From IMG/VR virus record IMGVR_UViG_3300037067_012588: 64,000 nucleotides of DNA; one strand, 5' to 3'. This DNA is from a virus. Taxonomy: Duplodnaviria > Caudoviricetes. The notes under the pieces are model-generated. The model was not told where the DNA came from. It did no database searches and worked only from the letters and a program-made list of their open reading frames with translations. The position numbers and the translations under genes were made by a program. Below are positions 47,601-61,241 of the stretch, piece by piece. Positions within the stretch are counted from its first letter, which is position 1. Each line of letters opens with the position of its first letter.

Positions 47601-50600
47601 GTAGGTCGTATCAGGAGTTGTTTCTGTTATCCCAGTTGTCTTCTTGATGAACGCACGGAACACGACATAAGAACCCATCAACCCTTGCGCAAGCCACAAA
47701 CATTCTCCATCTTCGTAAACAAAACGAAGCTCAAGATATTGCTTGGTCGACCAAACATGGATATCGTTCAGATAATACTTATAAATATATTCCGACTGAA
47801 GGTCATAACACGCATCTTCCTTCTTTGAGAACACATTCTGCTTCTGAACGAAATGCCAGTTTGACATATCAAGGATAGCCTGAAGCGGGTCGCTTGGGCA
47901 CTGTTTACACTGTGCCGATGAACTATCCGTATATGATGCCGTGCAACTTGCCTCCTCTATGGTTGGTATATTCGGCGCACGAAGTTGAACAGAGCTTGTG
48001 CAGTCAGCCTCATTCATGTAATAAGGACGAATTTCAGCCATCTCATTTGGAGCAACAACATCCGAAACCCAAATACATCCGTTTGAATAATCCTGCCATC
48101 TATAACTGAATCGAATATCTGCCGTTGAACGGGCAAAATACCTGACATTGTTCCAAACAAACTGGACAATGCTATCACCTGTAACTTGGTTGCAAATCAA
48201 ATCACGGCTCGGCGAAATAACAAGGTCTGAACGCAGAACAATTAACCACAGACAGTCTTCCGAAGGAGGCTCTTCGATACAAGTATTACATGACGACTGA
48301 GATGAACTTGACGATGAGAATCTGTCTGCGCAATATTCAGTATCAACATATGAACGGTCTTCAAAGATGTAATCTTGAGGATAATAATCATACCTGTTCC
48401 CAAATACCTGAACCGATCCAGCACGAATATATCCATCAACCTTGGAATAAAGTCCAATGTCTGAAAGCTTTGCCGTTCCAAAGCAGGCATCAATAACAGA
48501 CTTGGACTCAGCAATGAATCCAGATTCCTTGTTCGCATTAGCAACAGCGGACAACGCTTTGATAGTTGATCCAATCTCAGCTCTAAATCCATAACGACCA
48601 TTGTATCCAGCATTTGCACCACAAACATCCAACGATGAATATCTCGATGCAACAAACCCATCCAAATCATTGAACGAAGATGTCACCCATTGGGCAACAA
48701 CAGAACCTCCACTGATAGCCCTAATACCTGTCGTCCAACGATCCCATATGGTCTTTCCTCCAACCTCTATGCTCGAATTCTTGGATGACGTCAACCCATA
48801 AGCATCCCCATTGAATCCATCTTCCCTATTCAAAACAAATCGAATACCATCGACATACGCAAGGGTATGCCCATTTGTGATTTCAATACCATCACAGTTA
48901 GCAAATCGAACAACAACCTTATAAGACCAAGGCATTGACCTCAAGAATCCTTTCGCCCATGATGAGTTGCTTGAGCGACTTGACGATGAACTTGACGACC
49001 GTGAGCGGCTGCTTGAACTTGAGCTGAATGAATGACTCGAAGATGACGATGAACTGCTCGACGAGTTATACGATGAACTTGAGCTGCTCGGGCTGCTCGA
49101 TGAGAAGCTCGAACTGCTGCTCGATGACATACTTTCCGACCAACTCGAAGAAGAACTGGACGAAAGACTGTGCGATGAACTTGAGGAACTTGAACTGCTT
49201 GACCAGTCTTGTGAATAAGCTGGGTGTTCGTTGATTGTGCCATTCCTCTGATATGTCCCAATTGCAGCCGTTGTTCCAGCGGCGGCAACCGAGAAGAAAT
49301 CATTTCCCGAATCATGCACGAAAACTGGAGGAGGAAATGCTCCATCTGGCTCAACAACTTCCCATGTTGATGCGAGAACACCATCCAAATCGGCACCCTG
49401 ATACGTCGTCCGATAATACTTTGCTCCGATATCTGGCCCGCCACCGATATACCAAACGGCAGAATTGTCGAACCACATACCTGCACCACCCGTATTCAAC
49501 GCCGAAGACTTACTGGACGAAGAAGACGAATCCGAAGAACTTGAGCTACTGCTTTCACTGAAACTGCTCGAACTGGACGAACTCAAACTATCACTAAAGC
49601 TCGATGATGACGAACTCAAAGAACTCGACGAAGATGAGCTATCGCTAAAGCTTTCCGATGATGAACTTGAACTCCAATCGCTGTTTGACGATGAAGAAGA
49701 GCTATAGCTGTCCGACCACGACGAGCTTGACGAATAACTAAGACTGCTTGACGACGAGCTAAACGAACTGCTTGATTTCGAAAAGCTGGAAGAACTGCTT
49801 GATACCGAAAAACTTGAACTGCTCGACGATGGGCTGCTTGAGCTAAACGAGCTTGAACTCGATGAACCATTAACAGTCATGAATGAAGGAGCTGGGGCAA
49901 TACCACTCGGCAAACGATTCCACCCTGTTGTCGGTGGAGTATTTCCCGTACTCTGAACACCATAGATAGCTCCAGTTACAGCCTTCCCAAGAGTATCACT
50001 AATGATCCACCAATAGGCAGAAGCCTTCTGGTAATATAGGAACAATCCATCTTGGTTCTTGTAATAGAACCTGTCATTAAACTCTCCAGCAAAGAAATAT
50101 GTTCCTGCAGCACTTACTGTTCCAGGGCTATTTGTCACCAAATAAGCTGGTGTTGAAATTTTTCCTGAGCTACTCGATGACGAACTGAACGAACTTGAGC
50201 TACTCGACGACAAGCTACTTGACGACAAGCTGCTTGAACTCTCTGAAGATGAACTGAATGAAATATCGCTGCTGCTCGAAGAAGAGCTTTCAGAAGACCA
50301 AGATGAAGAAGAGCTGCTTGACAAACTGAAAGACGAAGAAGAACTTGAACTCTTTGAATTAGAACTCGACGAACTTGAGCTTATCGATCGATACGAACTC
50401 GAAGAGCTGCTGAAGCTCGAACTACTCCAGCTTGATGAGCTTGAGCTTGATGAAGCATATGTTCTAACGACAACATTGTTGAATTTGGCTTGGCAAACCA
50501 AGAGCGAATTATATTCACACAAGAATCCAAGTTTGCCATTTTCAGGCAGCCACTCTCCATCACGACCCGTAACAGATACCTCGCATACCAACATCCATTC

Positions 50601-59600: not shown

Positions 59601-61241
59601 TGTCTCAGACCAAGTGTCTCCATGTTTCGACTTACTGAAAATATAGGCTGCTCCTCGGTTATCCTCGGTATATGCTCCAGCAATAATTCTTGCCGCATCC
59701 ATACCAACAGAAGCACCGAAGTTTCCTCCCGTACCGTCATGGGTTATCAGCTTCGCAATCTGATACCAATCATCACCATATGTCCCAAACGAACGACGCA
59801 TGACATAGACAGCCCCAGCATCTTGATGCCCAGGCTGATCCTCACCATATGCCCCGACAACAAAGTAATCGCCAAAGGACGCCAATGCTGCACCAAAGTA
59901 ATCTCCAGAAGACTCATCAGAAGAATACAACTTCTTCTCAAGCGGAACAAATGACGATGACGATGAACTAAAGCTGCTTGAGCTAAAGCTATGTGAGGAT
60001 GATGACGAACTAAAACTCGAACTCGAAGATGAGGATACACTCTGAGAACTACTTGATGACGATAAGCTGTCGCTCGACGATGACGAACTTGAAAGTGATT
60101 CTGAATAGTTCGAAGAACTCGAACTGCTATTGCTATATGAATCACTCGATGAACTTGACGATGAAGAATCTGGAGTAAACTGAACGTACTCAGCACGGGT
60201 ACGCACGGTCCCAGTTTGGTCATCATAAGCCGCAGCAACTTGAAAATAATTCGTATCATTCACAAAATATGTCAGTGAGGCTTCGTCTCCAGAACGCTGA
60301 ATGTTTGCCGAATAATCAACAACTGCATCGAAATTTCCAATCTGAGTCCATGTCAACTCAGCAGATGGAGCTGTATCAATTCTTGGGGCAAGCATTCCAC
60401 GCAAGGCTTGTATTCTGAGCTTGCAGTCAACAACATCGATAGACTCTGCGTTCTCTTCATTGACTTTGACAAAATTCGGAGACCATTCAAACGGATCACA
60501 GAAAGAATAGAGCCGATGAAATACTCCCCAAGTCGAAGAAGAAGAACTTGATGAAGAAAAACTATCAGATGAAGACGATGAAAGGCTTATCGAATTGAAC
60601 GATGAGCTTGAAGAGCTAAAAGATGGGTGCATTGAGTCTGGCAAATCGCCATACAGGTAAATTCGTGTTTGGTCCCATGTCGCATGACCCTGACCTTTTG
60701 GAACAAACTCAGACCTTCTGACGCCGTAGACTCCAAAGTTTACTGTCTCACCCATAATCTTAAGGAACGACTCTGCAGGAAACTCCGATGTCTGATTTCC
60801 ATCCAGCGCAATAAAGATTTCTCCAGAATCCTCATCTTGTTCGACAATGAAAGCGTCAAAATTGATACCGTCATTCTCATTACCAAGAATCTGAATCTGA
60901 GAACCAAACGGATGGTCAACGTTCAGTTTTTCCGTGAAACGATATTCACCATCAGCGAGAAGAATTGTAACCATCTTCCCAAGTCCAACCGTTCTGTCTT
61001 TCAACCATTCAAAAGCACGATGCGGCGAAGCCCACGGGTTTTCCCGTGAGCCATCGCCATTGACATCATCACCATTTGGACTGATATGCAACAGAAGGTC
61101 GTCTTCAATGTTCCGAAGCGACGGCAGGAACGTAGCTGTTCCATTTTGCCCTGCATATACCCCGAACTGGTCGGTATTTTCTCCGGAGCTAATCCGTTTT
61201 ACATTTAGCCTAGCCATATTCCCTCGCCCACTATAGGACAC
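44688..61241 (-). CDS. giant poly-Ser fibre/adhesin-like protein (5517 aa): beta-helix, FG-GAP, LamG, collagen-like and Cys-rich modules
   Basis: Uninterrupted 16.5 kb ORF. ISPNGDD..GDGS..NPW beta-helix start; FG.SVA.....VGAP...GAVY repeats; W.HIA..R......F.NG...MDEIRI LamG motifs; about 17 Ser tracts. Confidence 0.85.
46565..46838 (-). repeat. Gly-Asp-X (9-bp period) collagen-like repeat
   Basis: [21 protein letters not shown]... followed by PEPP repeats. Confidence 0.9.
47260..47482 (-). repeat. second Gly-Asp-X repeat region (two short blocks)
   Basis: [14 protein letters not shown] and [32 protein letters not shown]. Confidence 0.85.

Follow-up and report, generated by a model that had tools for sequence, protein, structure and literature searches.

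Domain insertion is found in about 20% of multidomain proteins, and a survey of 48,000 such events found that inserts are usually smaller than their hosts (PMC13114784). Insertion can be recursive, reaching up to six levels in the cyanobacterial RNA polymerase beta' subunit (Si3) (PMC13114784). In the RTX adhesin AhLap of Aeromonas hydrophila, ligand-binding modules bud from split domains, and a vWFA domain, in turn split, interrupts a beta-solenoid, giving three levels (PMC12077191, and Graham et al. 2024 cited there). As far as the cited passages describe them, 'evolved' Dit and other phage adhesion proteins carry a carbohydrate-binding module inserted in another domain (PMC6669499, PMC8540738), and carbohydrate-active enzymes of Cellvibrionaceae (Saccharophagus, Teredinibacter, Cellvibrio) have polyserine linkers of 80-83% Ser with a mean length of 39-44 amino acids (aa) (PMC2699552, citing Howard et al. 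2004). Here we analyze a giant gene in a 64,000-nucleotide (nt) stretch of the virus record IMGVR_UViG_3300037067_012588 (Duplodnaviria; Caudoviricetes), hereafter the window, in which nested insertion and poly-Ser tethers occur together. The gene most probably encodes a structural protein of the tail-fibre or receptor-binding type from a jumbo phage, in which a beta-helix carries nested, poly-Ser-tethered guests and so forms a branched tree of sugar-binding-type modules.

The gene occupies 44688..61217 on the minus strand and encodes about 5,509 aa, from an ATG at 61217 to a stop codon at 44688-44690. The stop-free open reading frame (ORF) runs from a GTG at 61241 (44688..61241, minus strand) and stays open in a single frame for 16.5 kb. 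The ATG at 61217 is the likely start, because a relative from another sample, P0002, begins with MARLNV at the same point and a GAGGG ribosome-binding site lies just upstream. Ser makes up 24% of the whole protein. A sliding-window split yielded 18 globular segments (D01-D18, all on the minus strand) with 17 poly-Ser linkers between them. The linkers sum to 1,162 aa, 913 of which are Ser (79%); each is 74-92% Ser and their mean length is about 68 aa. Sixteen of the 17 are 20-178 aa long and span 48966..60623 (minus strand), and the last is only 8 aa (48294-48317). The first-pass annotation, made from the letters alone, had placed the segments within a few bases of these boundaries. It had also claimed that poly-Ser bounds every break, and this holds, with tracts of 20-178 aa.

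The order of the pieces along the chain is strictly nested and can be written A1[B1[C1[x y]C2 z]B2[u v]B3 (E1[]E2) f g h]A2. A beta-helix split between D01 and D17 forms level 1. Inside it, at level 2, are sandwich 1 (D02, D08 and D11), propeller 2 (D12 and D13), D14, D15 and D16. The first gap of sandwich 1 holds propeller 1 (D03 and D06) and D07, and the second gap holds D09 and D10; these make up level 3. D04 and D05 lie inside propeller 1, at level 4. The series from beta-helix to sandwich 1 to propeller 1 to D04 and D05 bears out the earlier suggestion of up to four nesting levels. Inserts are 1.2 to 9 times the size of the host domain, with 3,886 aa in about 420, 495 aa in 398, and 1,333 and 1,021 aa in the 208 aa of the twice-interrupted sandwich 1; propeller 2 holds 126 aa in 377. 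Each set of host pieces is collinear with a homologue that has no interruption, and jointly covers it once (P0005 for the beta-helix, D14 for sandwich 1, and 28 homologues for the propellers). Fold modelling was done on unaltered sequences instead of joined pieces, namely one contiguous sub-span, three pieces as separate chains of a complex, and one contiguous homologue. Between them, sequence comparison and modelling show or strongly predict the split and nested topology.

D01 (60624..61217) comprises the N-terminal cap, the first coils and a small beta subdomain of the beta-helix, and D17 (48318..48965) comprises its body and C-terminal end. D01 matches nothing in Pfam or, by sequence, in the PDB. 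Searched exhaustively with HMMER, it gave 455 matches in a representative set, all having the ISPNGDD-NGDGS-NPW cap in common, and several are proteins of about 400 aa in which the similarity runs beyond the cap motif. P0005, a contiguous 424-aa phage homologue, aligns to both pieces, with residues 7-160 matching D01 39-198 (E 3e-26) and residues 171-352 matching D17 6-190 (E 1e-16). Only the 10 residues 161-170 are left between, and the PWSHKV motif of P0005 corresponds to PWSYKV at the start of D17. Because P0005 bridges D01 and D17 with a 10-residue loop, the roughly 3,900 aa between them here occupy one surface loop. The AlphaFold2 (AF2) model of P0005, built with 29 relatives in the alignment, is a single compact fold (predicted local distance difference test, pLDDT, 92.6; predicted template modelling score, pTM, 0.91), and its confidence drops to 58 exactly at 161-170. 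By structure comparison, residues from about 12 to 424 form a right-handed beta-helix in this model, similar to gp15 of phage Andhra (8egr_A; Z 29.2, root-mean-square deviation (rmsd) 1.9, 294 aligned) and to AlgE4 (2pyg_A; Z 29.2, rmsd 2.3, 289 aligned). The likeness to Andhra is also seen in the sequence of D17, which matches 8egr_A, the receptor-binding protein of this Staphylococcus phage, at E 4.3e-6 in the PDB; its match to Pfam Beta_helix is weak (E 0.022, under the family cut-off). D17 extends as far as the beta-helix family does at its C-terminal end, and the small beta subdomain of D01 is already present at that position across the family. These results support D01 and D17 as the two parts of one split right-handed beta-helix, as predicted by sequence and model, and agree with the earlier proposal that a beta-helix begun at the N-terminus resumes some 3,900 aa later. 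The gene for P0005 adjoins a Phage_tail_APC gene, and another member of the family, P0003, carries Mtd_N and sits on a 183-kb T4-like contig; for these reasons we take the host domain to be a phage fibre or receptor-binding module.

The contig of P0005, 57 kb long, has its own peculiarity. Just upstream of its tail genes (locus L003, 1945-5419) is a cluster encoding a lysine 2,3-aminomutase-like radical SAM enzyme, lysine 5,6-aminomutase-like subunits and a BKACE enzyme, a metabolic cluster unusual for a phage-like contig. The 176-aa ORF downstream of the giant gene is unrelated to the ORF of the same length downstream of P0005.

Sandwich 1 is made of three pieces: D02 (60168..60533), the N-terminal 122 aa; D08 (55974..56168), the middle 65 aa; and D11 (52848..52910), 21 aa that contain a single closing beta-strand with poly-Ser on both sides. 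The same chain also contains an uninterrupted paralogue, D14 (50454..51110), an intact 219-aa putative ConA-like sandwich that we call sandwich 2. D02 aligns to D14 15-104 (z 6.9) and D08 to D14 145-199 (z 5.1), collinearly, and in both cases none of 300 shuffles reached the score. D11 comes in the order at the place expected of the last D14 strand. We submitted D02, D08 and D11 as separate chains to a complex predictor in three runs, with unrelated proteins as controls. The ipSAE was 0.86 (D08), against 0.14 for the best control; in calibration, the ipSAE mark was reached by 58 of 80 solved complexes and by two of 110 mismatched pairs. The three runs have at least 94% of contacts in common, partner pLDDT is at least 78, and the approximately 227 contacts represent strand-by-strand interleaving, not a surface patch. 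D08 has a pLDDT of 79-83 in the complex, which falls to 48 once an unrelated protein is substituted for D02. Residues T11-I21 of D11 contact the last strand of D08 in the model. As to the fold, language-model (atlas) features of D14 score 0.96 to GH43_C2 / DUF1349-type clusters, in which 10-50% of members carry GH43_C2, and an internal BLAST comparison gave a weak match between D14 and a LamG domain of D10 (E 1.3e-4). The alignments and the complex model together support a single, putatively ConA-like sandwich split into D02, D08 and D11. The first-pass annotation had described a second sandwich copy split in three, and this holds, with D11 assigned to it from where it falls in the order and from the complex model.

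Two FG-GAP propellers follow the same logic of interruption. Propeller 1 consists of D03 (59463..59951; FG-GAP_2, E 1.4e-36), with the N-terminal closing (velcro) strand and three FG units, and D06 (57273..57977; FG-GAP_2, E 4e-31), with four. The strand pattern places its break mid-blade, between strands 3 and 4 of blade 3, such that D03 has blades 1-3 without the last strand of blade 3 and D06 has this strand plus blades 4-7. We found 28 contiguous seven-blade FG-GAP_2 homologues, each of which aligns over about 150 residues of D03 and about 200 of D06 and spans the 495-aa gap. AF2 was run on the natural contiguous span, aa 431-1323, with the guests given no alignment; pLDDT was >90 in both halves and <50 in the guests. 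Against integrin alpha propellers, the model scores Z 38-40 (rmsd about 3.1, identity about 19%) with 350-362 of 398 residues aligned, and therefore both halves are needed for the match. Its best structural matches are alphaM (7p2d_A) and alphaL (5e6r_A), at Z 38.9-39.8, both integrins that bear an inserted I domain. The model supports one seven-bladed ring predicted to close around a 495-aa insert.

In propeller 2, D12 (52182..52694; FG-GAP_2, E 7.9e-28) provides the closing strand and blades 1-3, and D13 (51186..51803; FG-GAP_2, E 1.6e-29) provides blades 4-7, again 3 + 4 blades aligning to the same contiguous homologues. Both propellers have an N-terminal strand-4-like segment and seven FG-GAP repeats (FG-GAP_2, PF14312). 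The poly-Ser tract between D12 and D13 (51804..52181; 126 aa) contains no domain. It lies between blades 3 and 4, because D12 already includes strand 4 of blade 3. Alignment to uninterrupted homologues thus supports propeller 2 as one putative seven-bladed propeller around an empty Ser loop. The earlier reading of propeller 1, split by two further domains, stands on the 3 + 4 blades, the bridging homologues and the single-propeller model. Its counterpart for propeller 2 stands in part: a Ser tract of about the 120 aa proposed does split the propeller, but between blades and not mid-blade. The same annotation had suggested a search for shorter homologues without the inserts, and P0005 and the 28 seven-blade proteins are such homologues.

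The guests appear complete as domains. D04 (58542..59288), one of two inside propeller 1, is a 249-aa domain of an unnamed family with no Pfam or PDB sequence match. Its atlas features score 0.97 to unnamed clusters of bacterial proteins of 216-288 aa, and its length matches these stand-alone proteins. Beside it, D05 (58137..58481) is a beta-rich domain of 115 aa without family assignment. The gaps of sandwich 1 hold LamG domains that cover their profile. D07 (56250..56870), in gap 1, is a complete LamG (Laminin_G_3, E 3.7e-13, profile 1-150 of 151). In gap 2, D09 (54408..55439) has an unknown N-terminal subdomain, unrelated to D15 or D16, followed by a LamG (Laminin_G_3, E 1.5e-12, profile 4-141), and D10 (52980..54227) has two LamG domains (Laminin_G_3, E 2.4e-36, two stretches, profile 3-145). 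Inteins, introns and bypassing were considered as ways of removing the inserts and rejected, since the inserts are in frame and form complete known folds, and Pfam scans gave no intein family.

Taken together, these data suggest how the protein may be built. The scaffold would be an ordinary right-handed beta-helix of about 420 aa, from a family found in phage tail-fibre genes. The chain would leave the helix at a surface loop just past the small subdomain, make about 3,900 residues, and come back to finish the helix. Within that excursion a ConA-like sandwich would be broken twice, its first gap holding a propeller that is itself broken by two domains, and every exit and re-entry would be a flexible poly-Ser linker. 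With such tethers, a guest would need neither near termini nor small size for the host pieces still to meet. The result would be a branched tree with about 15 sugar-binding-type modules hung on a fibre, namely two propellers, two ConA-like sandwiches, at least four LamG domains and small unknown domains. Its likely outcome is multivalent, long-reach binding of polysaccharide on the surface of the bacterial host or in its surroundings. We infer the location in the virion, the binding of glycans, and the pairing of the pieces within one chain.

Pairing could instead take place between chains, with D02 of one copy joining D08 and D11 of another, or D03 joining D13 and D12 joining D06, so that a trimer or mesh would be cross-linked by domain swapping. 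The length of the linkers (20-178 aa) would permit this, and cross-pairing of the propellers is geometrically possible since both are split 3 + 4. The C-terminal Gly-X-Y runs of 11 and 29 triplets also suggest an oligomer, and their collagen-like Gly-Asp-X composition hints at a trimer. Our models fold the pieces as given and read the same for pairing in cis and in trans. However, strict nesting is expected of insertion in place and is unnecessary for pairing in trans, and effective local concentration favours partners on the same chain. We therefore consider inter-chain pairing unlikely. More improbable still is a beads-on-a-string protein with decayed remnants, in which the pieces are truncated, non-functional duplicates that never reassemble. 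D11 is without significance when taken alone, and the chain has whole or almost whole copies in D14 and propeller 2, which could in principle make the fragments redundant. Yet the pieces are complementary and non-overlapping, come in the right order, and sum to one domain (122 + 65 + 21 aa against 219 aa; 3 + 4 = 7 blades; helix cap plus body). The confidence of D08 rises only beside D02, and D02 is 79% identical in P0002. As debris, a single strand of 12 residues preserved between two Ser tracts would make no sense.

A further concern is that the gene is an assembly artefact, a chimeric ORF stitched from smaller genes by reads wrongly joined across poly-Ser DNA. Sixteen Ser-rich tracts lie inside 12 kb. 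No contig closely related to that of the window turned up in the collections searched, and 24 kb of the window gave no megablast match to phages. The linker DNA, however, is not repetitive, because its Ser codons are mixed. All six are used (AGT 215, TCG 214, TCA 200, AGC 147, TCT 119, TCC 18), DNA repeats among linkers are at most 54 nt and mostly of 60-80% identity, and the longest exact word common to linkers is 26 nt. Judged by the sequence, mis-joining of short reads is unlikely. The frame is open throughout 16.5 kb, and random mis-joins would not yield perfect nesting. P0002, known only from a 1,479-bp contig of another sample, has 71% identity across the N-terminal region that aligns and shows the same first junction, from D01 through a linker of equal length to D02. 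An alignment scan of viral and metagenome contigs for the D01-D02/P0002 region returned nothing. We regard an artefact as very improbable, on a par with the decayed remnants, and keep to the reading of one intact, nested gene.

The linkers may also record how the gene grew. They have 18 words of at least 17 nt in common, compared with a mean of 3.5 and a maximum of 12 in a null of synonymous-codon shuffles. The empty tract at 51804-52181 has two exact 26-nt words in common with the linkers that flank D02, at 60534-60623 and 59952-60167. This excess hints at common descent of the linkers or gene conversion among them, and codon-pair bias could contribute. One tentative, rather doubtful idea is that poly-Ser loops are general 'sockets', which Ser-flanked cassettes enter by recombination between Ser-coding tracts, growing a branched multi-lectin tree; inter-chain pairing would then net the fibres together. 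The empty 126-aa tract of propeller 2 would be one unfilled socket, and tethering would lift the limits on insert size and on the distance between guest termini.

Several points weigh against the nested reading as a whole. The evidence that each host is one fold comes from models for propeller 1 and sandwich 1 and from a homologue for the beta-helix, and all of it is prediction. The beta-helix was modelled on P0005 only. For propeller 1, the AF2 alignment came from contiguous homologues, so that the model indicates compatibility and not independent proof. For propeller 2, the reading comes from the blade count and the alignment to homologues. D11 has about 12 structured residues, and its sequence alone is not significant (z 1.2). 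Pieces of a split fold tend to score well in complex prediction owing to their similarity to solved structures, and the alignments for the complex of D02, D08 and D11 were shallow and outside the calibration of the tool. D14 has no Pfam match at E <= 1, no PDB sequence match, and no relatives of 120-384 aa in a word-index search. Without a Pfam match or word-sharing relatives, its 'ConA-like' label rests on the language-model features and the one weak internal match. Finally, D18 and the N-terminal 40 aa are without relatives, and attachment to the virion is for this reason something that we infer.

How far the protein resembles what is known depends on the feature considered. Like AhLap, it would be a giant surface fibre with binding modules that grow out of companion split domains, and AhLap also has lectin-like modules. 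It differs in being a phage protein, in its long poly-Ser tethers in place of tight junctions, in guest arrays of up to 3,900 aa, and in its four levels. General Pfam scans of the segments returned no RTX family, no search aimed at an RTX signal being made, and RTX repeats, an Ig-like extender array and a type I secretion signal were not seen. We do not class the protein among the RTX adhesins, and the resemblance appears to be one of design only. The integrin alpha chains (alphaM 7p2d_A and alphaL 5e6r_A) offer another parallel, a seven-bladed FG-GAP propeller with a ligand-binding domain in a loop. The I domain of integrins falls between blades 2 and 3. By comparison, propeller 1 has its insert inside blade 3, where two unrelated guests hang on poly-Ser tethers, and propeller 2 is interrupted between blades 3 and 4. 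Si3 has the same A1-B1-C-B2-A2 nesting within one polypeptide, but is made of tightly packed repeats of one small domain type, whereas four host folds and flexible tethers are found here.

The linkers themselves fall within the definition of polyserine linkers (about 80% Ser, tens of residues, joining folded modules). At about 80% Ser and between modules of carbohydrate-binding type, they are like those of the Cellvibrionaceae enzymes, as far as these are described in the cited passage. Those enzymes are secreted beads on a string, in contrast to the 17 linkers in one phage protein that bound insertions. Evolved Dit, in the passages cited, has one level and one small module, without Ser tethers, in siphophage baseplates of Gram-positive hosts. 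We found no known phage beta-helix receptor-binding protein or tailspike with a multi-kilodalton insert in the loop after the N-terminal coils, and full-text literature searches gave no report of a phage fibre with both poly-Ser tethers and nested insertion. The first-pass annotation had stated that no phage protein like this has been described. These searches agree with it, but the principle of nested insertion is itself known (PMC13114784, PMC12077191). What seems new is the phage-fibre setting, the poly-Ser at every break, and inserts of up to nine times the host.

Outside the nested hosts, D15 (49866..50162) is an unknown domain of 99 aa, and D16 (49206..49505) is a 100-aa domain that looks like a circular permutant of it. 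Their alignment score rose from 40 (z 1.99) to 56 (z 4.75, 0 of 500 shuffles) after rotation of D16 at residue 68, and D15 against a doubled D16 gave z 4.07. The Cys-rich C-terminal 1,201 aa, D18 (44691..48293), contain 50 of the protein's 79 cysteines. Two highly acidic (Gly-Asp-Ser/Ala)n runs of 29 triplets (46572-46832) and 11 triplets (47259-47357) flank a globular, Cys-rich stretch of about 140 aa, and a Pro-rich stretch (PPEPPTPP) comes after them. D18 matches Pfam Collagen (E 1.8e-15), and tail-fibre families of PHROG match the repeats. No relatives of D17 plus D18 were found among proteins of 783-2,494 aa by word-index search or in GenBank phages by tblastn, and the C-terminal 603 aa had no relative in IMG/VR.

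Two Kelch-repeat proteins are encoded directly upstream of the giant gene, at 61318-63276 and 63294-63998. The first, of 652 aa, has enough repeats for two propellers (Pfam E 1e-65). Such proteins are uncommon among phages, and these may be part of the same adhesion module. Relatives of the upstream Kelch gene are found at two IMG/VR loci, neither of which has a Ser-rich giant ORF. On the other side, the N-terminal part of a 213-aa ORF at 41621-42262 weakly matches glycosyltransferase family 25 (E 3.4e-5) and a PHROG glucosyltransferase (E 1.2e-4), and this ORF could matter if the Ser tracts are O-glycosylated. The window has other very large minus-strand ORFs, at 12482-18559 (2,025 aa), 9758-12481 (907 aa) and 3425-7375 (1,316 aa). 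Pfam and PHROG gave no match for the first two, whereas the third matches Big_2 / Ig-like structural proteins and contains two short stretches rich in Ser.

If the nested reading is true, the protein would be a boundary case for folding. A beta-helix of about 420 aa would need to wait for about 3,900 intervening residues before it closes, and a single 12-residue strand would come back after 1,021 residues to complete its sandwich. Inserts would reach nine times the size of the host, whereas those in the survey cited above are usually smaller (PMC13114784). With long poly-Ser tethers, almost any loop may become permissive to insertion, which would be of use in the design of branched multi-binder proteins. 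By analogy with the users of poly-Ser linkers, the bacterial hosts may be polysaccharide-degrading Gammaproteobacteria, though the linkers point to this only weakly. For such a jumbo phage, one fibre gene would pack about 15 potential glycan-binding modules.

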